DNA from: Pseudobdellovibrionaceae bacterium | Lineage (GTDB): Bacteria > Bdellovibrionota > Bdellovibrionia > Bdellovibrionales > Bdellovibrionaceae | Direction of reading: 5' to 3' | Length of the DNA: 13,940 bases | NCBI GenBank assembly: GCA_044359815.1 | Contig: JBIKLL010000072.1 | Coordinates: forward strand, 1 to 13,940 | In this document: piece after piece, positions 240 through 11,752 of the stretch | How positions within the stretch are numbered: position 1 is the stretch's first letter | Layout of the letters: every line of letters starts with the position of its first letter | Position numbers and translations under genes: made by a program | Notes under the pieces: generated by a model | Told to the model about the DNA's origin: nothing | Databases searched by the model: none | What the model saw: only the letters and a program-made list of their open reading frames with translations

Positions 240-1586
240 CTATTTTTCGTGTAGGTAGTAAGAAATCTCTTGGTAAGCAACTTGGCCAGCAAACTGATTT
301 AGTCCCTTGGGACGCACAAATGTTTTTACAAATGATTCTCTAAAAGGTCGCAAATCATCTTGTCCCGGAAATGTTTTTATTTTCTCGGCACATTCCAATA
401 CAGAATGGGTGACATAAACTGCCTTTGAATCTACCAAATCACTAAAATGCAAAGCCAGTTTCTGAGTCTTTTCAAATTGCGGCAATACAATAGCCACAGT
501 GGGTTTATTAAAAACCACGGCATCTATCATGGCCGAGGTGTTGATACCAACTATTGCTTGAGCGCCTTTTATCATGGCGCCAAATTCGGATTGGCCTTTG
601 ACAGAACTGGGGAAAGAATTTTTATCTGTAAATACAAAAACTTCCTCATGACCAACTAGGCTCGAATACACTTGCTGATTCTCTGGATGAGGTCTCAAGC
701 ATACTGTGAATTGGGGTAAAAGCTTTTGCAGTTCCAAAATAACCGCCGTTTCATCCTTGGCAATGTTGCTGGAAGACCCCAGATACAATACATAGGGCTT
801 TGTCATATTCATCTTTGCTTCAATTGCTCTGATCCCAGGTGACCACCATTTATCAAACAAGCAGGCACCTACGATTTTCACTTCTTGGTCGCTGAAATCA
901 TGTTTTGATTTTGCAAACTGTTGCTGTTTTTCATTCCATACCAACAGCAAATCCGGTTTGATTGCAAATGCGCCCTTCGTAGTTAAATTATCCCAGCTAA
1001 TAACAGGCACTATTGAAAACACTCTCAAAGCCTTCGCAGCTTTTACAAACTCAATTTCGTAGGAATGTTTCATGTTACATGGCGATGCAATAATTGCTTG
1101 GGGCCTGAGCTCTTTAGTAACCCTTAAGACTTCTGGATCGGTGGGAACTACGGTCTCAATTAACCCTAATATTAAGTCTGCTGTTTCAGATTTTAATAGA
1201 TTCTGAGTCCACTGATAAGAAAATATTTTTCTAAATGGCCAAGATAAATAGGAATGCCACCTGGCCAGATAAAACTTGGACTGTGTTTGATCCAGTAAAT
1301 AATTTCTGTAGGACCTCAGTTCACGGATTTCCCAAATAAATCTTCTGAGCAGCTTGAATCTGCCCAATCGTAATGTGTGCACAACGACCGATTGATCATC
1401 GATGTACTCTGCTAAAAAATCAGTTAAAACAATATCCTTAGGATCCGGTGCAAACAAATGAACTTCATACCCAGACTTAACAAATTCTTTGATTAGAAAT
1501 TCAAAGTAACTGGAAAACAAAACCTTTCTCAATGCCAAGATTATTTTAGGTTTTCGATTTTCTGACAATTTAAAATTTTCTGTCAT
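240..1586 (-). CDS. Putative GT-B-fold glycosyltransferase (candidate CMP-ulosonate transferase; CDP-glycerol:glycerophosphotransferase-like)
   Basis: About 448 aa. The ATG at 1586 overlaps the neuA-like TGA (TGATG); the ORF track starts one codon earlier at TTG 1589. Motifs SWDNLTTKG, LLVWNE, LRPHP and GINTSAMIDAVVFNKP fit a two-Rossmann GT-B pattern. Last gene of the NeuB/NeuA module. Confidence 0.6.
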   Translation of the reverse strand: MTENFKLSENRKPKIILALRKVLFSSYFEFLIKEFVKSGYEVHLFAPDPKDIVLTDFLAEYIDDQSVVVHTLRLGRFKLLRRFIWEIRELRSYRNYLLDQTQSKFYLARWHSYLSWPFRKIFSYQWTQNLLKSETADLILGLIETVVPTDPEVLRVTKELRPQAIIASPCNMKHSYEIEFVKAAKALRVFSIVPVISWDNLTTKGAFAIKPDLLLVWNEKQQQFAKSKHDFSDQEVKIVGACLFDKWWSPGIRAIEAKMNMTKPYVLYLGSSSNIAKDETAVILELQKLLPQFTVCLRPHPENQQVYSSLVGHEEVFVFTDKNSFPSSVKGQSEFGAMIKGAQAIVGINTSAMIDAVVFNKPTVAIVLPQFEKTQKLALHFSDLVDSKAVYVTHSVLECAEKIKTFPGQDDLRPFRESFVKTFVRPKGLNQFAGQVAYQEISYYLHEK

Positions 1587-2335
1587 CAACTGTTCAACAG
1601 GGCTTCAGCCAATTTAAAATCTAATGGAGTATTAATATCCACCGACTCTTCCTCGCTCATTTCAAATGATAAAACCTTTTCACCCACTGTATTGTTAAAA
1701 TCATAAAGGGTTTCGGTTTTTACTATATAGATACTGGCATTCTGAATCTGCACTGCGGGCAACAAATGATAAGCCGCTGTATTTGTGGCACCATTGTCTT
1801 TTTTAACGAACGGGACTAAAAAATCACCGTCTTTGGTCCACATTTTAAAAGGATGCTCGCTGACTTTTTTGGTTGATCGTAAACTGTGAGCTTCTTTGAA
1901 CTGAAACAATCTTTCAATCGCATCGTCAATAGTCTCAGCCCTCCTAAAGGGAGTGGTGGGGTACAAATTAACAATCAACTCTGGCAGATACTTGTTCTTT
2001 TTATAAAGCTCATTCAATGCATGCACATGAAATTCAAATTCAGTTGAATTTTCATTGGCAATTTCAAAGGGCCGTAAAAAAGGAATTTCTGCCCCTGCTT
2101 TTTTCGCAACCTCTGCGATTTCGGCCGAATCAGTTGATACGACAATTCTATTGATCAGTTTGCTTTTTTGAGCCGCTTCAATGGTGTAGTTTATCAATGG
2201 CTTTCCATTGAGTGGTAAAATATTTTTATTTTTGACTCGCTTAGATCCACCCCGTGCAGGTATTAAACCCAGAATTTCTCCAGGTCTAATAGCCTTCAGT
2301 AAATCATCTTTGCTATCAAAAATAAGATCCAACAT
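1586..2335 (-). CDS. neuA: Acylneuraminate cytidylyltransferase family protein (CMP-ulosonic acid synthetase)
   Basis: LIPARGGSKRVKNKNI CTP-binding loop, VSTDS, PFLRP, PTTPFR, NASIY, SVDINTPLDF; 249 aa with no fused HAD domain; start overlaps the upstream stop (TAATG). Confidence 0.9.
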   Translation of the reverse strand: MLDLIFDSKDDLLKAIRPGEILGLIPARGGSKRVKNKNILPLNGKPLINYTIEAAQKSKLINRIVVSTDSAEIAEVAKKAGAEIPFLRPFEIANENSTEFEFHVHALNELYKKNKYLPELIVNLYPTTPFRRAETIDDAIERLFQFKEAHSLRSTKKVSEHPFKMWTKDGDFLVPFVKKDNGATNTAAYHLLPAVQIQNASIYIVKTETLYDFNNTVGEKVLSFEMSEEESVDINTPLDFKLAEALLNS

Positions 2336-4251
2336 TATTTAGACATCTCGCCAATTTTTGCAGCCAATGTTTCTCCGTCGATTCCATGAAATCTCAAAGC
2401 TTCCCATGGTGTTCCGCAAGCTGGAAACCCTTCCACTCCAAATTTTCTAAGTGTCAGATTCTTTAACAATCCATTGGCATTTAAAAATCCTGTCAACAGA
2501 TCGCCCAATCCTCCAGTCGGAGCATGGTCATCCAGTACAAACAAATTGCGACAATCTTTCAACGTGGCTTTCATCCATGGCAGATCAAAACGATTTAACC
2601 AAGGCAGATTATAAACCGCCAATTTAAAACCCTTTTGAGCCAGCTTTTCAGAAGCCAATAAAGCTTCATGCAACATCACTGGGCCGTAAGAAATCAAAAT
2701 ATTTTCAGATCCTTCGGTCAGTTGATTGCCACAGCCAAATTGTAGTTTCCAATCTGGTTTAAACTCGATCAATCTTGGACTGGGGCCAATGTTCATTCTG
2801 ATATTAACAGATTCTTTGGCCTCGTTAATGGACCATCTAGTTAATGATTCAGTTTCCTTGGCGTTAGCAGGTTGAACAATCGTGACATTAGGTAAAGCTG
2901 CAAACAAAGAAATATCTCGGATTGCCTGGTGTGATTTTCCAGGACCTGCAGGAATTAATCCCGCATAATGACAAGCGTATATAATTTTTCGCTTCTCAGT
3001 TTGAGTATTGTAAATCTGTTCGTTCGCTCTGGCTGCCATAAAATTTGCAAATGAATTACAAATTGGCGTAATACCTTTACCAGAAATTCCACAAGCCATA
3101 GAAACCATGTCTTGCTCAGCGATACCCATCTCGATAAATCTGTCTGGATATTTGTCTTCAAACTCTCGCAGTTTACAATCCAACGACAAATCAGCATCTA
3201 AAACTGCAAAATCTTTTCGCTCTTCTGCCATCTTCACCAATGTTTTTCCATAGGCTTCAGCTAAAACCTCGCTGGAAACTTTGGTTCCAGGTCTGGCTTC
3301 AGGAGCTGGTTCTACCCTTTTAAATGCTGTTAATTGGTGTTCAGTAAATTTCTTCTGAATATTCCCCAGCAGTTCTGAATAAGCTCTTTCATAAGACGCA
3401 TCGTCTGGAGCTCCTGCGTGCCATTTAAAAAATCCATTATTATCTTTCAGCGCCTGAGGATGTTCCATAAATGAAATGCCGCTGCCTTTGATCGTGTCAC
3501 AAATCAAAAACTTTGGTCTGTCCTTGATCGCATCAAGAGCTTTAAAGGTTTTTTCCAATTCATTATAATCATGCCCATCGCATCTCATTACTGCCCAGCC
3601 GAAAGCTTCAATTTTTTTCTGCAAATCACCTAAACTAACAATGCGGTCAATATTTCTGTCTGACTGTAATTTGTTGTGATCCATTACGACCAAGACATTT
3701 CCATTTTTATGGTGTGCCGTTGATTGCAAGGCTTCGAAATTTTGACCTTCTTGAAATTCTCCATCACCAACCATAACGATAACTCGACCGGTGTTGCCAT
3801 TATACTTTTTTGCCCAAGCGATTCCTCGGCCTTTAGAAATTCCCATCCCCAAAGAACCCGTATTGGCTTCAACTCCTGGGATTCTGACATCGGGATGTCC
3901 ATCCAAACCATCTAATCTGCGCAAGGCTAAAAATTTATTTTCAGGAACGATATTCATTGAATACAAAACGGCATACAAACCTGGAGCATCATGGCCCTTT
4001 GACGAAAAATAAATATCTCGATCAGGGCTATCAATACCCACATCTTTAACGTTCATAAATCGTTCATACAGATAAACCACAATATCCATCGCACTCAAGC
4101 TTGATCCCAAATGACCACTGCCGGCTCTTTTGACTTCAAACAGAGTATTCAGTCTGCTCATCTTGGACAGCAATTGCAGCTTTTCCTGCCATGGCAAATT
4201 GGTGCTGCGAACATTTTCAAATTCACTTTTTGGGATAAACTTCATTTCCAT
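2335..4251 (-). CDS. Transketolase-family ThDP-dependent enzyme (single chain, N- and C-terminal sections joined)
   Basis: GSGHLGSSLS, SKGH, LDGHP, TGSLGMG, GDGEFQEG...N ThDP/Mg motif, TIKG, WH, DADL, EMGIAEQ, SHQ; strong SD (TAAGGAG) upstream of ATG 4251. Confidence 0.9.
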   Translation of the reverse strand: MEMKFIPKSEFENVRSTNLPWQEKLQLLSKMSRLNTLFEVKRAGSGHLGSSLSAMDIVVYLYERFMNVKDVGIDSPDRDIYFSSKGHDAPGLYAVLYSMNIVPENKFLALRRLDGLDGHPDVRIPGVEANTGSLGMGISKGRGIAWAKKYNGNTGRVIVMVGDGEFQEGQNFEALQSTAHHKNGNVLVVMDHNKLQSDRNIDRIVSLGDLQKKIEAFGWAVMRCDGHDYNELEKTFKALDAIKDRPKFLICDTIKGSGISFMEHPQALKDNNGFFKWHAGAPDDASYERAYSELLGNIQKKFTEHQLTAFKRVEPAPEARPGTKVSSEVLAEAYGKTLVKMAEERKDFAVLDADLSLDCKLREFEDKYPDRFIEMGIAEQDMVSMACGISGKGITPICNSFANFMAARANEQIYNTQTEKRKIIYACHYAGLIPAGPGKSHQAIRDISLFAALPNVTIVQPANAKETESLTRWSINEAKESVNIRMNIGPSPRLIEFKPDWKLQFGCGNQLTEGSENILISYGPVMLHEALLASEKLAQKGFKLAVYNLPWLNRFDLPWMKATLKDCRNLFVLDDHAPTGGLGDLLTGFLNANGLLKNLTLRKFGVEGFPACGTPWEALRFHGIDGETLAAKIGEMSK

Positions 4252-4265
4252 ATTGTTCTCCTTAA

Positions 4266-5717
4266 TTACAAATGAGCTAAAGTGTTGTGATAAGTAACCT
4301 TCAATTGTGTATAAACGTCAATGGCTTCGGGGCCTGGTTCACGCCCTCCAGCTCCTGAATCTTTGACCCCACCAAATGGCATGTGGGGCTCACTACCATG
4401 AGTGCCGGCATTAATCGAACAAACCCCAGCTTGAATTTTGCGGCTGAATTCCAATGCCCTATGATAATTTGATGTGTGAATGGCCGAAGTCAGTCCAAAA
4501 TCGCAATTATTTGCCAACTCCAAGGCTTCATTTAAATTTCGAACCTTGTACAAACAGGTTATGGGTCCAAATAATTCACATTTAGAAATTCTGGAATCCG
4601 CCGAGGCGTTTTCTAAAATTGTAGGCGGCACAAAAAAACCTTTGGACCAAGTCCCAGCATCTAGTCGCCTGCCTCCAACTAAAAGAGTCGCTCCGGCCTT
4701 TTGACTTTCATGAACTTCATGCAACATGCGATTCATGCCTTTTTCATTGATAACAGGTCCAAAATCATCAGCATCATTAGTGCCGATCTTTAATGAATGA
4801 GCTTTATCTAAAAACATCTTTTTAAATTTTTCGTACACATTTTCAAAAACAATTATTCTGCTGGAAGCCGCACATCTTTGTCCTGCATTACTAAACGAAG
4901 ACAATGTAGCCCACTTAACCGCATTTTCTAAATCAGCATCATCACAAATCACCATTGGGTTTTTTCCACCCAATTCTAAAAAGGTTTTCGCTAATCTGGC
5001 TCCCGCTGTCTGAGCGATTTGTCTTCCGACCTCTGTTGATCCTGTGAAACTGACTAATTGAATATTTTTGTTAGCAACTAAAGCTGCACCGACTTCTTTA
5101 CCTTCACCATGTAACACAGTCAGAATCCCTTTCGGAAAATGGGATTCAGAAAATATTTCTGCAAAAACCTGTGCTGTCAGTGGAGTGTCTTCTGAGGCTT
5201 TCAGTAAAGCTGCATTGCCAGCAACCAGACTGGGAAATACCTTCCATGCAATGTTAGCAATAGGTGTGTTGAAAGCTACAATCAATGCCGTTAATCCCAC
5301 AGGTTCTTTTGCAATGACAGCAGATCTGTTATCCACAGAACTTCCAACACTGCGACCAAACATTCGAGCGCCTTCGCCTGCCATGTAATATCCCTGGGCG
5401 ACGGCCGCCATGGTTTCACCCAAAGCATCTTTAACCGATTTTCCAGTTTCCAGCGCAACCACTTCGGCAATTTTTAATTTGTGATTTTCTAGGGATTTTA
5501 CAAAATCAAACATGATTTCCCCACGTTTTACCGTAGGAGTTTGTGCCCAAATTTTCTGTGCTTTTTGTGCTGAAGCTATGCTTTGCTCAACATCTTTAGC
5601 TGTTGATTTTGCAACTTGAGCAATGATCTCAGAATTTGCAGGATTTAATTTTGTAAAATAGGATTTACTCTCTGATTCGGCAAATTCACCGCCGATATAA
5701 TTTAGGATTTTTTTCAT
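4266..5717 (-). CDS. NAD(P)-dependent aldehyde dehydrogenase
   Basis: AFNTP (oxyanion Asn), KASE, FTGSTEVG, LELGGKN (catalytic Glu), GQRCAA (catalytic Cys), ELFGP, PFGGVKDSG; 483 aa. Confidence 0.95.
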   Translation of the reverse strand: MKKILNYIGGEFAESESKSYFTKLNPANSEIIAQVAKSTAKDVEQSIASAQKAQKIWAQTPTVKRGEIMFDFVKSLENHKLKIAEVVALETGKSVKDALGETMAAVAQGYYMAGEGARMFGRSVGSSVDNRSAVIAKEPVGLTALIVAFNTPIANIAWKVFPSLVAGNAALLKASEDTPLTAQVFAEIFSESHFPKGILTVLHGEGKEVGAALVANKNIQLVSFTGSTEVGRQIAQTAGARLAKTFLELGGKNPMVICDDADLENAVKWATLSSFSNAGQRCAASSRIIVFENVYEKFKKMFLDKAHSLKIGTNDADDFGPVINEKGMNRMLHEVHESQKAGATLLVGGRRLDAGTWSKGFFVPPTILENASADSRISKCELFGPITCLYKVRNLNEALELANNCDFGLTSAIHTSNYHRALEFSRKIQAGVCSINAGTHGSEPHMPFGGVKDSGAGGREPGPEAIDVYTQLKVTYHNTLAHL

Positions 5718-5743
5718 GCTTTAAGACCTCGAATCCATAAGGA

Positions 5744-6565
5744 TTACCAAGCCGTCCAGCCGCCATCAATCACCAAATTTGAACCCGTCATATAACTGGA
5801 AGCATCCGACATTAGGAACACCACAGCACCGTTAAGCTCATCTGGCTTTGCCATGCGGCCCATCGGCATGCGCTTTAAATATTCATCTAAAAACTTCTGA
5901 TCTTGATTATTAAAAATCCCAGCAGGGGTTATCGTATTTACCCGTACATTCTGTTTTGCCCAATAGGTCGCCAAATACCGCGTCAGATTAAAGACCGCAG
6001 ATTTTGATATCGAGTAAGCCACTGGTTTAAACCAAGGCTTTCCACCCTCACGCTTAAATTCGTAAATATCCTGATTGGGTGAAACCAATCCATAAATCGA
6101 AGCTATATTAATTATGCTGCCACCGTCGTTCTGAGCCATTGCTTCGCCAAAAACCTGGCAGGCAAAAGTAGTTCCCAAAACGTTTACATCCATAATTTTT
6201 CTTAAAGAAGCTTCTGGATAGCTTTCAAAGGGACCATTTTCCTCTAAGCTGGCATTCGGAGGCGAATCCAAAGCGGCATTATTAACCAGTCCCCAAGGAA
6301 CTCCCATGGAAGATTTGATTTCTTGAAATGTTTTTTTGATTTCTTCAGGCTTAGTGATGTCTGTAGTAAAGGCTTTTAATTGTTTTTTCTCTGATAAAAG
6401 CTCTAAAAACTTTTGATCGCCTTTTCTGGGTTCTTTCACAACATCAACGCAGGCAACTCTGGCACCGGCTTGCACCAAGGACAGCGAAAACTGCTGCCCC
6501 AATTGTCCCATGCCACCAGTAACTACTACGGTTCGATCTTTTAAATTAAAAAGATCTGATCCCAT
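5744..6565 (-). CDS. Classical short-chain dehydrogenase/reductase (PtmA-like, as found in nonulosonate clusters)
   Basis: TGGMGQLG Rossmann motif, acidic residue after beta-2 (CVDV, suggesting NAD), NNAA, ASIYG, YSISK (YxxxK), TGSNLVIDGG. Confidence 0.93.
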   Translation of the reverse strand: MGSDLFNLKDRTVVVTGGMGQLGQQFSLSLVQAGARVACVDVVKEPRKGDQKFLELLSEKKQLKAFTTDITKPEEIKKTFQEIKSSMGVPWGLVNNAALDSPPNASLEENGPFESYPEASLRKIMDVNVLGTTFACQVFGEAMAQNDGGSIINIASIYGLVSPNQDIYEFKREGGKPWFKPVAYSISKSAVFNLTRYLATYWAKQNVRVNTITPAGIFNNQDQKFLDEYLKRMPMGRMAKPDELNGAVVFLMSDASSYMTGSNLVIDGGWTAW

Positions 6566-6568
6566 AAG

Positions 6569-7708
6569 TTAGTCGTGCAGAGGGCTAAGAATTTCAAAGC
6601 TCAGATCACCTTCCTCAGGAAGATCTTTTAGCAATTTCTGTCCCAAAATTTTATCATAATAAATTGGAGACATTCCATCAGCAGGAGATTTCAAACACAA
6701 ATCAGAATCTTGAAGGACATGACCAGCCTTTAGATTTTTGGCAGCCACCAGCTTTTTACCCATTTTTAACAATGGAGACTTTTCTCCAGGATAAGTGTCT
6801 TTCACGCCATTACCCAAAGCCACTCTGACTCGTTCAAGGTCTCTGACCATTTTCTTTAACCCGACTGGCTCTAATGAAAATGCGTGGTCCGTACCTCGCC
6901 AAGCTCTGTTGATTGTAAAATGTTTTTCAACAACTCTTGCTCCTAATACATAGGCGCCCACTGCCATGGCGATACCGTTGTCATGAGCCGACAAACCAAT
7001 CACTACTTCAGGAAATTTTTCTCTAAAAGTTTTGATAACATTTAAATTTAATTCTTCGTAACTGGCGGGATAGCTGGCAGTACATTGCAAAATAGCTAAC
7101 TGTTGATTGATTGGATAGATGGTTTCAAAAGCTCTTACCACGTCTTCCAAGGTTCCGCCCCCAGTTGAAATGATCATTGGCTTTCCTTTTTTAGCCACGT
7201 GTCTCAGCAAAGGAATGGATTTCAAATCACCCGATGCCATCTTGTAAGCTGGCACTCCCAACTTATCCAAAAAATCTGCGCTTTCTACGTCAAAAGCTGT
7301 GGAAAAAAAGTCCATATCCAATTTCTCAGCGTAGGTTTTAAGTTCTACATATTGTTCCCAACCAAACTCCAACGCATCCCTATGAGATCCATAGGTTGGA
7401 CCATAAGCATTTTCACTGGTGTATGGCTGATCATACATTGCCTTTGTGTACATAGTTTTATTATTGCGTTTTTGCAGTTTAACAGCTTGTGCACCAGCTT
7501 CTTTGGCTGCATCAAACAACTGCTTACAAACTTGCACATCACCTTTGTGATTGTGTCCGATTTCAGCAATCACATAACAAGGGCTTTGATCGTTGATGAC
7601 ATGCTTTCCGATTTTCATTTCTCTTTTTTTAGATGTCGCTGAATTCATTTCTGATTTTCCTGTTTTAAATTGGTTTTTATTCATATTAATAGATTCAGTA
7701 GATTCCAT
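6569..7708 (-). CDS. neuB: NeuB/SpsE-family PEP-dependent ulosonic acid synthase with C-terminal SAF/antifreeze-like domain
   Basis: IAEIGHNHKG, KLQKR, YKMASGD, ISTGG, QCTASYP, GLSAHD, EKHFT, GTDHAFSLEP, SAF-like tail (KKLVAAKNLKAG...KSPADG). SD-like AGGGGG 6 nt upstream of ATG 7708; an alternative start at 7648 is possible. Confidence 0.93.
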   Translation of the reverse strand: MESTESINMNKNQFKTGKSEMNSATSKKREMKIGKHVINDQSPCYVIAEIGHNHKGDVQVCKQLFDAAKEAGAQAVKLQKRNNKTMYTKAMYDQPYTSENAYGPTYGSHRDALEFGWEQYVELKTYAEKLDMDFFSTAFDVESADFLDKLGVPAYKMASGDLKSIPLLRHVAKKGKPMIISTGGGTLEDVVRAFETIYPINQQLAILQCTASYPASYEELNLNVIKTFREKFPEVVIGLSAHDNGIAMAVGAYVLGARVVEKHFTINRAWRGTDHAFSLEPVGLKKMVRDLERVRVALGNGVKDTYPGEKSPLLKMGKKLVAAKNLKAGHVLQDSDLCLKSPADGMSPIYYDKILGQKLLKDLPEEGDLSFEILSPLHD

Positions 7709-7742
7709 AAAGTTCCCCCTGCCTGGTTTTGACGAGCTTTCA

Positions 7743-7772
7743 ACGCTAGCATTAACATATGACGCAAGTCAA
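7743..7772 (-). promoter_or_regulatory. Putative sigma70-type promoter for the neuB module
   Basis: Minus strand TTGACT (7772-7767), 18 nt spacer, TAGCGT (7748-7743) preceded by TGn (extended -10). It lies in the only sizeable gap (79 bp) of the minus-strand gene run. Confidence 0.5.
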
Positions 7773-7787
7773 ATTTAGTCCCTCAAG

Positions 7788-8915
7788 CTAACGGTTTGCA
7801 TTACTTTGTCCAAACCCACCTTTACCGCTCCAGTCTTGCAGAAGCTGTTGCACAAAAACTTCCGAACCATTGCTGCCTGCCAAAGTTTTCTGACAAAATT
7901 CAGCGGCCAAATCTTGGAAAGCCTTTGAGCTTTTTTTCCAGTTGTTAAGAGCGCTTACCCAATCCTGAGGACTGGTTGCTAAACACAAAGGTTTGTATAA
8001 ACTCAAATCCAAATCTGTATTGATCACCACCACTGGCTTTCCGATCACAGAAGCATCCAAAGCAATAGTTGACGGGCAAGTGTAAACTAAATCTAAGCCC
8101 TTTATAAATTCGCTGGTGAAAATGCCTTTCCACTGAGTCAATTCATTATCCACGATTTCAAATCGCGTATGAAAATGCTTTTGCAAATCCTGAAAGCGAT
8201 TTTTAAAAAGCTTGCTATAGTGTGGTTTTAAATACACTTTTATCGAAACATCGGACCTAAGCAGCAATTCAATTCCTTTAAGGAACTGAGCTCGATAGTT
8301 TTCGTCATACCTGTGCCAATGCAAATTCTCAAAAACTCCGATTTTGAATCCTTGCCAATCAGAATCAAATTTTTGTGGGCTCTGGAAGCTTCCTATTTTG
8401 GGGTATCCAGCCGATATCATTTTCTGGCGCTCCGCAAGATCTAGCCACGAACTCAGACTGCTTGGCTTTCCCCATATCAACACCTTGTCGGAAGCGAACT
8501 TTACATTCTCGCTCAAGCTGTCTTTATAGTTGATTCCCACATTTTCAAAACCGTGTTGCCAAGTGTAGGATCTGATCCCAGAAACTCTAGCTTTTTTTGT
8601 TATTCGATGCCCTAAATTATGAGCGGCCAGATTGGTTTCAACCGCCGTTACCAAAAAATCAATTCCCTTTAATGCTGGCCATGGAATCCCCATCCGCCCC
8701 CTGATTCTGGATAGCCAAAAGGGATTCCAATCTATCAAATAAAAAATCCCCAATTCTTTCAGCCGATTTATAGAATCCGGAATCTTTAAATGAATTCCTT
8801 CCGCCAAAAAAACTTTGATCGGAATATTCTGTTTTTTACATTCAATCATTGAGCCTATTAAAATCTCAAAATCAGTGGGCATATACAGATAAAACCCAAC
8901 CACTGGCAGCTTCAT
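7788..8915 (-). CDS. Hypothetical protein, probable GT-B-fold glycosyltransferase
   Basis: 375 aa; TWQHG, VLIWG, AGYPK, LKPHY and STIALDASVIGKPVV motifs resemble GT-B/capsule-synthesis proteins; translationally coupled to the upstream methyltransferase (TAATG at 8917-8913). Confidence 0.55.
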   Translation of the reverse strand: MKLPVVGFYLYMPTDFEILIGSMIECKKQNIPIKVFLAEGIHLKIPDSINRLKELGIFYLIDWNPFWLSRIRGRMGIPWPALKGIDFLVTAVETNLAAHNLGHRITKKARVSGIRSYTWQHGFENVGINYKDSLSENVKFASDKVLIWGKPSSLSSWLDLAERQKMISAGYPKIGSFQSPQKFDSDWQGFKIGVFENLHWHRYDENYRAQFLKGIELLLRSDVSIKVYLKPHYSKLFKNRFQDLQKHFHTRFEIVDNELTQWKGIFTSEFIKGLDLVYTCPSTIALDASVIGKPVVVINTDLDLSLYKPLCLATSPQDWVSALNNWKKSSKAFQDLAAEFCQKTLAGSNGSEVFVQQLLQDWSGKGGFGQSNANR

Positions 8916-9598
8916 TAACTTTTAGATCCCACAACAAACACGGCCACACCCAACAGATCCCATAATCCAGCAGCCATAATTCGCCTTTTGATGGGCAACG
9001 AATAAACCAAATTATAAATAATTGCTGGCACTGACAGCAAAAGGATGCGTTTTACATCCCTGCGCGTGCCCTTTCTGTGAATGATCACGCCATTTTGTGA
9101 AAGTGTCTCGGCAATTTCGTTATATGGATAAGGCTGAGTGTGCGTGGGGTCGTCTTTGAAATTCAAAAACCCATCTGCCGATGGGTATTTTAGCGTTCTC
9201 TCCGAAGGTGTTTCAACATAGATAACACCTCCTTTTTGCAGCTTTTTGGCCAACTCTGCTAAAATCTTGTGACCATTCCACAGATGCTCAATCACGTGGC
9301 TAAAAATGATCACATCAAAAAAATTATCAGGGACTTTTGACAGCCCCTCTTTGTCTAAATCTATTTTATAAAACTGGTCTATGCCCTTATAATCATTTTG
9401 TTGGCCGTGCCAAAATTCACGATCGACACCATGATATTCTTTTACATTTAACCATTGTTTAGTAGTTTCAAATGAAGCATTGCCACACCCTACATCCAAA
9501 ACCATCAGTGGCTTGTTGGCCGCAAATTTTTTTACCCAATATAACTTGGGAGGTATTAAAAGTCGCTTTATCCATTTTGCCAAATTTCTTAAAACCAT
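8915..9598 (-). CDS. Class I SAM-dependent methyltransferase
   Basis: VLDVGCG motif I, GVD, FDVIIFSHVIEH, LQKGGVIYVETP, DPTH. Confidence 0.9.
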   Translation of the reverse strand: MVLRNLAKWIKRLLIPPKLYWVKKFAANKPLMVLDVGCGNASFETTKQWLNVKEYHGVDREFWHGQQNDYKGIDQFYKIDLDKEGLSKVPDNFFDVIIFSHVIEHLWNGHKILAELAKKLQKGGVIYVETPSERTLKYPSADGFLNFKDDPTHTQPYPYNEIAETLSQNGVIIHRKGTRRDVKRILLLSVPAIIYNLVYSLPIKRRIMAAGLWDLLGVAVFVVGSKS

Positions 9599-9601
9599 CT
9601 T

Positions 9602-10441
9602 TCACACTCCGAAATACAAAGAATAGCATTTTTCAGCCGAATCTTTTCTGAACTGAAAATGCTTATACGAGAAAATATTTGCCCAAGTTCCAATTGCCCC
9701 ATGTTGATAATGCTTCACTGTTATTGATGGCATGTAAACCACTTTTAGTTGCAGCTTCTTGCAATTTTCAGCCACCGTGAATTCTTCTCCAAATAAAAAA
9801 CAGGGGTGCTCAAATGTCCCGCCTCCCTCAAAATAGGAATCACTAAAAACCATCAAGCTTCCATGGGGCGCATAAATGTCGCTTTGAATCGCAGGATTAC
9901 CTGAAGCTCTTCCGAAAAAACCGAATAATCTGTATTTTATTTCAGCCAATAACTGATAAATCACAGCCGTGAAATAGTTCGAAAAAGCCTTTTTCCAAAT
10001 TTTGATTTTTTCAATTCTGGGAGAATCTTTCATAAAGGGATTCATATCACTGCCAGACACTGACGAAACTATCCGTGGCGCCAGGCAACCCCAGCCTCTG
10101 ATTTTTTGTTCGTTAAAAATCAAACTGTAAAAATCTTTGTTCAAAATTTCTAAATCGGTATTAGAAACAATGGTCATTTTTTTGATCTTCAATTGCGATC
10201 TGGCCCACTCAGCGCCACCAAAATACCCTCGATTTTCAGGGCAATTCAGAACAACCAATCTGCCAGAAGATTTTTTTACCAATTCAGTAAAATTATCCTC
10301 TTCGGTTTTTTTGGCGCTGTTATTTACCAAAACCCAACTGACTGAATCCGCATCAGGCAAATCAAACAGGCTCTGCAGAAAATCTGAAGTTTGTTTGTCA
10401 TTGTGATAGTTAACGCAAATATGCACGAGCTTTTGATTCAT
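9602..10441 (-). CDS. Glycosyltransferase family 2 (GT-A fold)
   Basis: ICVNYH, LVNNS, ENRGYFGG, SNTD (DxD-equivalent), HGSLMVF, FLFGEE, VKH; 279 aa. Confidence 0.85.
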   Translation of the reverse strand: MNQKLVHICVNYHNDKQTSDFLQSLFDLPDADSVSWVLVNNSAKKTEEDNFTELVKKSSGRLVVLNCPENRGYFGGAEWARSQLKIKKMTIVSNTDLEILNKDFYSLIFNEQKIRGWGCLAPRIVSSVSGSDMNPFMKDSPRIEKIKIWKKAFSNYFTAVIYQLLAEIKYRLFGFFGRASGNPAIQSDIYAPHGSLMVFSDSYFEGGGTFEHPCFLFGEEFTVAENCKKLQLKVVYMPSITVKHYQHGAIGTWANIFSYKHFQFRKDSAEKCYSLYFGV

Positions 10442-10477
10442 TGTCCTTTTCGTCCGTATTTGATTAAATAGGCCACC

Positions 10478-11752
10478 ATGTTTAAAAGTGCAATCTTACA
10501 AAATAGTGGTTGGAATATTCTGGGAAACTTAATGCCGTTTGTCGTCGGTATTTTTACAATCCCACGAATCATCCACGGCATCGGGATTGAACGCTTTGGG
10601 ATTTTATCAGTAATTTGGATTTTGCTAGGATATTTTGCATTGTTCGACTTTGGCCTGAGCCGATTTGTGACGATCAACAGTGCTTTGGCAATTTCTGAAA
10701 AAAACCGACAGAATATTTCAAAAATTTTTTGGAGCGCTTTCCTGGCTGTGGCTTTGGCTATGTTTATTGTTTCTTCGTTGATGATGGGTTTGTCTTACAC
10801 GGATTTTTTCTCTAAATTTCAAGTCACAGATCAGTTTAGAGCCGAAGCCCTCGAGTCCACTCGCTGGATGATATTGACAATTCCAGCTGTGATTTTGACC
10901 ACATTATTCAGAAGCCTGCTTGAATCAGATTCACTGTTTAAAGAAATCAATGCTCTGCAACTGGTTGCCGGAACTTACAATTACCTTTCACCTATGCTGG
11001 CCTTACATACTGAACAGCCTTTATTAACCACGGTGAAACTGTTGGTGTTGGGACGTTTTCTGATTTGCTTGGCTCACGGATTGTGGTGTTTGGTGTTTTT
11101 TCCTGAGATCAAAAAAATCGATCACTATTCAAAGGCAGAATACAAAAAAATGCTGACCTATGGTGGATGGATGACCATTTCAAACGTGATTAACCCTATC
11201 ATGGTGTATATTGACAGGTTGTTTTTGGGTTTGTTTTTAGAAGCTTCAAAAATTGCTTACTACACTGTGCCCACTGAAATACTTAATCGATCTTTAATAG
11301 TCCCTCAGAGCATTGCACGAGCGGCGTTTCCTCAGATGAGTGTTCAGAAAGCTGGCGAAGCCTACCAAAGCAGACCCCATCGCGAAGCCTACAAATTGAC
11401 AATAATCACGATGCTGCCTTTTTGCATTTTGGCATTTTTATTGGGTAAATTCGGATTGAATTTTTGGGTGGGCGAAGCGTTCACCCAGCAGAGTATTTTG
11501 AATTTTCAAATCCTTACAGTTGGGGTTATTTTTGCCAGCTTGGCTGGAATTCCCTATATGTTTATCCAATCGCGTGGCCGCTCAGATGTGGCAGCAAAAC
11601 TGCACATGCTTCAGTTTCCCATTTATCTTTGCGCTCTTTATTTTATGGTTTCCTATTTTGGCGCCACAGGGGCCGCAATTTGTTGGTCCGTGCGTTGGTT
11701 TTTGGATTTTGTCTTAATGGAATTTGCAGCCAAAAGGATTCAGCACTCATGA
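10478..11752 (+). CDS. wzx: Polysaccharide flippase (Wzx, MOP/PST family)
   Basis: 424 aa, highly hydrophobic with many predicted TM segments; NSGWNILG...P...GIERFG, FDFGLSR, IDRLFLG, IAYYTVP, GATGAAICW pattern typical of Wzx. Confidence 0.9.
   Translation: MFKSAILQNSGWNILGNLMPFVVGIFTIPRIIHGIGIERFGILSVIWILLGYFALFDFGLSRFVTINSALAISEKNRQNISKIFWSAFLAVALAMFIVSSLMMGLSYTDFFSKFQVTDQFRAEALESTRWMILTIPAVILTTLFRSLLESDSLFKEINALQLVAGTYNYLSPMLALHTEQPLLTTVKLLVLGRFLICLAHGLWCLVFFPEIKKIDHYSKAEYKKMLTYGGWMTISNVINPIMVYIDRLFLGLFLEASKIAYYTVPTEILNRSLIVPQSIARAAFPQMSVQKAGEAYQSRPHREAYKLTIITMLPFCILAFLLGKFGLNFWVGEAFTQQSILNFQILTVGVIFASLAGIPYMFIQSRGRSDVAAKLHMLQFPIYLCALYFMVSYFGATGAAICWSVRWFLDFVLMEFAAKRIQHS

Follow-up and report, generated by a model that had tools for sequence, protein, structure and literature searches.

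The 13,940-base window analysed here is an entire contig (C82) of a Pseudobdellovibrionaceae genome assembly (G000; 2.95 Mb in 125 contigs, 91% complete). Positions 240-7708 carry a cassette of six co-oriented minus-strand open reading frames (ORFs), which we propose to direct the biosynthesis of an ulosonic acid activated with cytidine monophosphate (CMP) and to include an undescribed module that remodels the carbon chain after the condensation with phosphoenolpyruvate (PEP). Central to this proposal is a transketolase-fold enzyme dependent on thiamine diphosphate (ThDP), whose catalytic residues are intact and whose substrate pocket is rebuilt in a way seen only in a cassette-linked clade. 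In the proposed route, a nonulosonate would be converted to its 8-keto form, cleaved by the ThDP enzyme to a C7 aldehyde, oxidised to a heptulosaric acid and activated as a CMP-sugar. We assign this route a probability of about one half. The six genes, in their order of reading, are:

6569..7708, minus strand: NeuB-family PEP-condensing ulosonic acid synthase, 379 aa, with NeuB and SAF domains
5744..6565, minus strand: classical short-chain dehydrogenase/reductase (SDR), 273 aa, adh_short_C2; predicted NAD+-dependent oxidase that would make the tail ketol
4266..5717, minus strand: aldehyde dehydrogenase (ALDH), 483 aa, Aldedh; predicted to convert the C7 aldehyde to a carboxylate
2335..4251, minus strand: transketolase-fold ThDP enzyme with a remodelled substrate pocket, 638 aa, three Pfam domains
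1586..2335, minus strand: CMP-ulosonic acid synthetase, a NeuA/PseF-like cytidylyltransferase, 249 aa, CTP_transf_3
240..1589, minus strand: GT-B-fold protein of an unnamed family, 449 aa, TTG start; probable transferase of the CMP-sugar

Neighbouring genes are at most 26 bp apart or overlap. In gene order, gaps of 3, 26 and 14 bp are followed by overlaps of one and four bases. The ORF coordinates and Pfam domains bear out the six tightly packed, co-oriented genes described in an earlier sequence-only reading of the window. That reading also saw no NeuC epimerase, aminotransferase or acetyltransferase in the module, and Pfam and NCBIfam searches likewise found neither Epimerase_2 nor the other two domain types in 240-7708. 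None of the five named proteins reached any NCBIfam equivalog cut-off; they are therefore superfamily members that fall outside the named, characterised subfamilies.

The transketolase-like protein contained the three domains of the family (PF00456, E 7e-32; PF02779, E 1.1e-25; PF02780, E 1.9e-12), and its scores were below the NCBIfam transketolase cut-offs (NF004559, 385 vs 488; NF004556, 285.9 vs 575; TIGR00232, 154.8 vs 682). The best solved relative was human transketolase (TKT, EC 2.2.1.1; PDB 4kxu; E 3.7e-65, about 30% identity), and pocket residues were counted along the printed alignment to this structure. H47, H87, H119, H278, D163, N193 and E379 of the window protein correspond to human H37, H77, H110, H258, D155, N185 and E366. 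This set comprises the four catalytic His residues, the metal ligands D163 and N193 of the GDG/N site and the cofactor-activating Glu, so the enzyme shares both the fold and the catalytic apparatus of transketolase. It differs in the substrate pocket, in its sub-cut-off score and in its setting within a glycan operon. Human R318, S345, H416, D424 and R474 are replaced by A331, D358, Y429, P437 and G489. We take R318, S345, H416 and R474 to be the residues that bind the sugar phosphate, and D424 (yeast D477) to be the stereo-determining Asp that binds the D-threo hydroxyl.

With an alignment of 27 homologues, 80 loci were fetched from one-genome-per-species contigs, a subset of at least 590 homologues. 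Residues were compared in an alignment of the window protein with 53 locus proteins, 36 from a clade at least 35% identical to it and 17 more distant. The other 27 loci, mostly with split or short homologues, were left out, their best single tblastn segment being shorter than 450 residues. The pocket replacements turned out to be a property of the clade. In all 36 clade loci, the R318 position was not Arg, the S345 position was Asp (Ser in one locus), the H416 position was Tyr, Phe, Leu or Met, the D424 position was Pro, and the R474 position was never Arg. The catalytic and cofactor residues were kept in all complete clade members. Among the homologues with 34% identity or less, the Arg was kept in 17 of 17, and the His and Asp in all except one (L058). 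A quick IQ-TREE analysis placed 37 remodelled transketolases on one side of a branch with an SH-aLRT value of 100. The sequence-only reading had already recognised a transketolase-like enzyme in the module; the comparison adds that the rebuilt pocket is confined to the clade linked to the cassette. Homologues with 55-82% identity number in the thousands and are labelled 'transketolase' or 'DXS' in the source databases, and the residue signature (Arg, Ser, His and Asp replaced) separates the clade enzymes from the true transketolases and DXS whose labels they now carry. The window genome holds another transketolase-family gene, on contig C15.

The tree of these enzymes conflicts with taxonomy in places. 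The proteins of an Acidobacterium and a Cyanobacteriota metagenome-assembled genome (L022 and L033) were near-identical, and a Verrucomicrobiota protein (L034) was placed among those of Actinomycetota. Horizontal transfer or mis-binning of contigs is suggested by this pattern.

We searched the 36 clade loci with the window proteins (tblastn, E ≤ 1e-10, at least 50% of the query) and found NeuB in 24, the SDR in 24, the ALDH in 25 and NeuA in 24. All four were present in 17 loci, and 30 loci had at least one cassette gene. According to the record titles, the 17 full sets came from at least eight phyla: Myxococcota/'delta', Acidobacteriota, Pseudomonadota, Melainabacteria, Chloroflexota, Elusimicrobiota, Actinomycetota and Verrucomicrobiota. 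The recurrence of the SDR, ALDH and transketolase beside neuB and neuA in other organisms, on which the sequence-only reading had staked its scheme, was thus observed. Conversely, the distant homologues (34% identity or less; from Clostridia, Fusobacterium, Streptococcus and others) had NeuB, ALDH or NeuA nearby in 0 of 17 cases. Of the loci left out of the residue table, one (L040) is cut by the contig end, yet carries NeuB-SDR-ALDH-NeuA. Among the other 26, the same filter was passed only by matches in L056 (ALDH, 30%), L071 (GT2, 28%), L075 (NeuB, 30%; SDR, 27%) and L077 (a short transketolase segment, 28%).

Six clade loci lacked any cassette gene. One is a 2.5-kb contig; for the remaining five, a NeuB homologue is present elsewhere in each genome. 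The DNA around it was retrieved for three of these genomes. A Gaiellaceae genome (G005) has NeuB(55%)-HAD-SDR-ALDH-NeuA on a contig separate from that of the transketolase; a Gaiellales genome (G004) has NeuB-HAD-SDR-NeuA elsewhere; and a Melioribacteraceae chromosome (G001) has SDR-HAD-NeuB(37%) about 5 Mb from the transketolase. The HAD gene of such sets recurs in the clade: a KdsC-like HAD phosphatase (Hydrolase_3) belongs to the cassette at 16 loci, usually between NeuB and the SDR. No KdsC-type phosphatase was found in the 91% complete window genome, either by tblastn with six cassette phosphatases or by TIGR01670 at E 0.01, and NeuC/Epimerase_2 was not found in this assembly either. The genome does encode KdsA (DAHP_synth_1) on contig C15 at 15066-15968.

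The partner proteins also retained the features expected of active enzymes. The NeuB protein consists of a TIM barrel (PF03102, E 8.5e-79) and a C-terminal SAF domain (PF08666, E 1.9e-06). It was 51-64% identical to the NeuB of related cassette loci, and its best solved relatives were SpsE (1vli) and Neisseria meningitidis NeuB (E about 1e-46). Its scores were below the cut-offs for both NeuB (TIGR03569, 299.9 vs 399.65) and PseI (TIGR03586, 245 vs 340.25). The SDR (adh_short_C2, E 1.9e-44) has the classical motifs in its translation, namely TGGMGQLG at 16-23, NNAA at 95-98 and YSISK at 184-188, with the catalytic Ser placed by eye in IASIYG. Asp41 after strand 2 is the residue typical of NAD+ users. 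Orthologues of this SDR in the clade loci were 39-58% identical. The enzyme would oxidise the sugar tail to a ketol, at a putative site set out below. In the ALDH (PF00171, E 5.3e-147), the motifs of the catalytic Asn (FNTP), Glu (ELGGKNP) and Cys (GQRCAA) aligned with those of the ALDH 7kqv, as expected for the superfamily, and its scores remained under all NCBIfam equivalog cut-offs, the best being GucD (436.8 vs 770). The NeuA protein has the cytidylyltransferase domain (PF02348, CTP_transf_3, E 1.7e-27); it scored 147.5 vs 205.7 for PseF and was far below the cut-offs of the KdsB models.

A second flavour of the cassette, which is new here, has a class-III aminotransferase in the place of the ALDH. 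The transketolases of a Bacteroidota locus (L013) and a Polyangiaceae locus (L026) are accompanied by this aminotransferase, an SDR, a HAD phosphatase and a shorter NeuB (~300 aa), and no ALDH is present. In L013, a cytidylyltransferase gene precedes the transketolase. The sets of this flavour, each with the class-III aminotransferase, SDR, KdsC-like HAD and short NeuB, lie at:

L013:9202-15544
L026:5028-11944
L098:7409-10968

The unlinked set of the Melioribacteraceae chromosome contains the same aminotransferase (71% identity) with SDR, HAD and the short NeuB, again about 5 Mb from the transketolase. In the quick IQ-TREE analysis, the transketolases of this flavour were nested within the ALDH-type clade at no fewer than three places. 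An ALDH and an omega-type aminotransferase act on one kind of substrate, an aldehyde. Their interchange fits an aldehyde as the product of the ThDP enzyme. The swap is supportive of this assignment and not decisive, since a ketone made by the SDR is an alternative substrate.

The cultured Streptomyces sp. NBC_01237 (NZ_CP108509.1, 10105-17419) provides a reduced version. Its locus contains NeuB(51%)-SDR(39%)-transketolase(41%), the last with the remodelled pocket, followed by a RmlD-like reductase, a HAD_2 hydrolase and a class-III aminotransferase. The neighbouring genes encode glyoxalase/HppD-like, FMN_dh and class I/II aminotransferase proteins, resembling phenylglycine synthesis, together with a LuxR regulator, and the setting looks like a natural-product cluster. 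From this gene content, the invariant core is NeuB, SDR and ThDP enzyme.

Taken as a pathway, these genes could act as follows. NeuB would condense PEP with a hexose, or with a hexose phosphate where the phosphatase is present, to give a nonulosonic acid. The SDR would oxidise C8, creating a terminal CH2OH-CO ketol. The remodelled transketolase-like enzyme would then cleave the C7-C8 bond and leave a C7 aldehyde, which the ALDH would oxidise to a dicarboxylic 3-deoxy-hept-2-ulosaric acid. NeuA would activate this acid with CMP, and the GT-B protein would transfer it to a glycan exported by Wzx. We infer every chemical step of this scheme and their order, what NeuB uses as its substrate, what becomes of the two-carbon unit, and whether the sugar is trimmed ahead of CMP activation or following it. 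What the sequences themselves show is the order and close packing of the genes, the domain content, the intact catalytic motifs, the rebuilt pocket, the set shared across phyla and the exchange of ALDH and aminotransferase. The idea of the sequence-only reading that a single route explains the three extra enzymes has therefore gained from conservation, pocket, motifs and swap, while Dha itself as the product and a separate promoter, both discussed below, found no support.

The changes in the pocket may be understood in terms of this substrate. Since 16 loci encode a KdsC-type phosphatase, the sugar is probably dephosphorylated before it meets a transketolase that would be blind to phosphate. 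By textbook stereochemistry, the C9-C8-C7-C6 tail of the 8-keto forms of ketodeoxynonulosonic acid (Kdn) or N-acetylneuraminic acid (Neu5Ac) would have the D-threo ketol configuration of transketolase donors. The hydroxyl recognised by the lost Asp would correspond here to the oxygen at C6, which is the pyranose ring oxygen, so the Asp would be dispensable. Decarboxylation by the ThDP enzyme at the 2-keto acid end was set aside as a candidate reaction, as it would destroy the centre needed by the conserved NeuA.

Several observations weigh against this pathway. No aldehyde is apparent that could accept the two-carbon unit, as a transketolase requires, and positive charge has been lost from the pocket even though an acid is proposed to bind there. 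As neither a KdsC-type phosphatase nor NeuC/Epimerase_2 was found in the window genome, no origin of the NeuB substrate is evident there. In Ignavibacteriota, the transketolase has unrelated neighbours and lies by itself, far from the other cassette genes. The SDR was not found within 10 kb in L009 and L031, and the ALDH was found neither in L028 and L038 nor on the Gaiellales contig (G004) with the other cassette genes; the full set as drawn is therefore not strictly required. Moreover, an orthologous transketolase (E ≤ 1e-100) was found in 0 of 40 related genomes (24 of the same family and 16 of the same order), which leaves no comparison with close kin. In this lineage, the locus is thus an accessory trait.

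The missing NeuB substrate leads to a different arrangement of the same enzymes, in which the transketolase-like enzyme, SDR and ALDH build an unusual aldose or aldose acid for NeuB and the product is a full-length, oddly substituted ulosonic acid. Transketolases normally make sugars, and neither NeuC nor any other obvious source of a NeuB substrate lies in the cassette or was found in the genome. However, the ThDP enzyme is without all four phosphate-binding residues, while 16 related cassettes encode a KdsC-type phosphatase, which implies that NeuB makes use of a phosphorylated substrate. An ALDH yields an acid, whereas NeuB needs an aldehyde, and the ALDH/aminotransferase swap is hard to place upstream of NeuB. 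We regard precursor supply as distinctly improbable on these grounds.

The ThDP enzyme could also add carbon instead of removing it. Like DXS or an acyloin synthase, it might take two carbons from pyruvate, hydroxypyruvate or a ketose and attach them to a sugar, at an aldehyde or at a keto group that the SDR has produced, so that the ulosonic acid would be branched or longer. The addition of two-carbon branches to sugars by ThDP enzymes is known, as exemplified by YerE, and the window protein does match DXS models (TIGR00204, 184.8 bits; PF13292, E 4.7e-15). The match misses the DXS equivalog cut-off of 465.95 widely, though, and the best solved relative is human transketolase. Chain extension would moreover provide no source of aldehyde for the conserved ALDH or for the aminotransferase that replaces it, and we give it very little chance.

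Extending the tail-cleavage explanation to the whole clade, we tentatively suggest, at slightly less than even odds, that these transketolases were recruited to remove the glycerol tail from sugars resembling sialic acid. The C7 aldehyde would then be a branch point leading to a heptulosaric acid through the ALDH or to an amino-heptulosonic acid through the aminotransferase.

The predicted product has the formula C7H10O8 of a 3-deoxy-hept-2-ulosaric acid, as has the D-lyxo isomer, Dha, to which the sequence-only reading had likened its product. The two should differ in configuration. From a Kdn- or Neu5Ac-type D-glycero-D-galacto nonulosonate, truncation would yield the heptulosaric acid of L-arabino configuration, which is diastereomeric with the D-lyxo Dha. 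The product is thus unlikely to be Dha itself, and 'Dha-like' would be true of the formula only. No biosynthetic route for Dha was found in the literature searched. Dha occurs in A. haemolyticus NCTC 10305, according to PMC4019464, and a 2012 review of rhamnogalacturonan II (PMC3355719) still calls its activated form undetermined.

The last gene of the cassette, 240-1589, was the most difficult to assign. Its product matched no Pfam family, gave only a weak NCBIfam match to TIGR04396 and had no solved relative by sequence at E 1. Its AlphaFold (AF2) model had a pLDDT of 92.7 and showed the two Rossmann-like domains of the GT-B fold. Alignments with GT-B enzymes spanned 315-336 residues at Z 20-25. 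In VIA-align, the Z scores were 24.8 for a UDP-GlcNAc 2-epimerase, 24.1 for NeuC, about 22 for GT4 transferases, 20.8 for TarL and 19.3 for WaaA, the transferase of Kdo. The top Foldseek match of the model was NeuC (5xvs). As judged from the model, the GT-B fold alone cannot separate a transferase from a 2-epimerase, so genomic context has to be considered. A hidden Markov model of the family matched 12 of the fetched related loci, often directly after the transketolase, including two Gaiellales loci whose remaining cassette genes lie elsewhere. A 38%-identical paralogue is located on contig C31 of the window genome (L087, 2226-5829), following an ABC-2 permease and a Wzt ATPase with a Wzt_C domain (Wzm/Wzt), which suggests that this paralogue acts at the end of an ABC-exported glycan.

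The structural matches raise the question of whether this protein is a divergent NeuC-like hydrolysing 2-epimerase that would give NeuB a free 2-acetamido sugar, making this copy of the cassette a Neu5Ac-type variant. The epimerases and NeuC were indeed the closest in structure, a few members of the family carry PF02350 in precomputed Pfam annotations, and neither a KdsC-type phosphatase nor another Epimerase_2 protein was found in the genome. Yet the identity to epimerases is 9-14%, GT4, TagF-type and Kdo transferases follow within 2-5 Z units, and there was no match to Pfam Epimerase_2 at E 0.001. Family members also occur in cassettes that already have a phosphatase (L004, L018 and L023), and the paralogue after Wzm/Wzt has no NeuB nearby. 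A NeuC-like function therefore appears unlikely to us. From the modelled fold together with the genomic context, the product of 240-1589 is a probable transferase of the CMP-activated ulosonic acid.

Compared with known systems, the cassette combines familiar ends with an unfamiliar middle. The Kdn pathway of Bacteroides thetaiotaomicron consists of a Kdn-9-P synthase, a KdsC-type Kdn-9-P phosphatase and a CMP-Kdn synthetase. The window cassette shares with it the NeuB-family synthase and the CTP_transf_3 cytidylyltransferase, and likewise has no NeuC, aminotransferase or acetyltransferase; 16 related cassettes also share the KdsC-like HAD phosphatase beside NeuB. It differs in the added conserved SDR, transketolase-like enzyme and ALDH, and in that no phosphatase was found in the genome. 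With the CMP-Neu5Ac, legionaminic acid (Leg) and pseudaminic acid (Pse) pathways (NeuC/NeuB/NeuA, Leg and Pse), it has in common that a NeuB homologue condenses PEP and that the product is then activated with CMP, but its NeuB and NeuA score below the equivalog cut-offs for NeuB, PseI and PseF. The CMP-Neu5Ac, Leg and Pse pathways tailor the hexose before condensation, as do, to our knowledge, all known ulosonic acid routes, and we know of no ThDP enzyme or ALDH in those three. Full-text literature searches found no paper in the collection searched that connects NeuB, Kdn or ulosonic acid clusters with a transketolase or with a ThDP enzyme, and papers beyond this collection are possible.

Ulosonic acids, including nonulosonic acids, shape the recognition of bacterial surfaces. 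If the proposed route is correct, chain remodelling by a transketolase homologue after condensation would be a new reaction type in sugar-acid biosynthesis and the first use of a ThDP enzyme in ulosonic acid tailoring. It would imply an undetected family of surface sugars, with new acidic and amino members, in at least eight phyla, and in Streptomyces perhaps a natural-product building block. It would also offer a testable chemical route to 3-deoxy-heptulosaric acids and could show the origin of heptulosaric acids such as Dha.

The genes around the cassette indicate where its product is used. Three further co-oriented genes upstream (7788..10441, minus strand) belong to the same glycan locus:

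10441-9602, minus strand: GT2-like protein, from atlas leads
9598-8915, minus strand: methyltransferase dependent on S-adenosylmethionine, Methyltransf_23, E 2.8e-13
8915-7788, minus strand: GT-B/TagF-like protein, from atlas leads

O-methyltransferases border the cassette also in L004, L009, L017, L018, L028 and L031. Beyond the upstream genes, a divergent operon encodes a Wzx flippase, a TuaG-like GT2, an HddA-like GHMP kinase and a GalE-like epimerase. The locus is a surface-glycan locus. The GT2 ORF, listed with its TTG start codon at 11464, has 289 bases in common with the Wzx ORF, and its Pfam domain begins only at residue 103; its true start is therefore probably near 11750.

The sequence-only reading had given the cassette a promoter of its own. 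A consensus scan covering sigma-70-type promoters detected no promoter-like minus-strand site in the 79-bp gap at 7709-7787, and its total of 18 sites was lower than the mean of 25.5 in shuffles, that is, fewer than expected. Because the three co-oriented genes at 10441-7788 precede the cassette, transcription of the whole unit may begin in the divergent region near 10441-10478. No RNA data set was among the runs listed as holding the window sequence, and scans of the window for tRNA genes and Rfam families gave no match.

The window sequence was present in lake-water metagenome runs. Contigs from four of these runs, which are not the likely source of the assembly, covered the window, showed no letter differences in the pieces listed, and spanned every gene junction of the cassette. 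The arrangement is therefore not an assembly artefact. Mis-binning of the contig was ruled out, as its GC content of 0.403 agreed with 0.412 ± 0.008 for the genome and its tetranucleotide distance ranked 8 of 39 among contigs of similar size. Contigs of three runs (X3, X5 and X6) matched the window up to positions 4105, 11034 and 13185 and then diverged into unlike sequence, which suggests that the lake populations contain variant strains of the locus, with one such variant lying within the transketolase gene.

At the contig end, positions 1-220 of the window contain a partly palindromic repeat of ~200 bp that matched no tRNA or Rfam family. Copies at ~72-98% identity were detected by blastn on many of the 125 contigs, often at contig ends. 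In the four lake-water runs the repeat had a depth of 15-97x, compared with ~2-6x for the remaining window. It looks like an element similar to miniature inverted-repeat transposable elements (MITE) or repetitive extragenic palindromes (REP) that fragmented the assembly.

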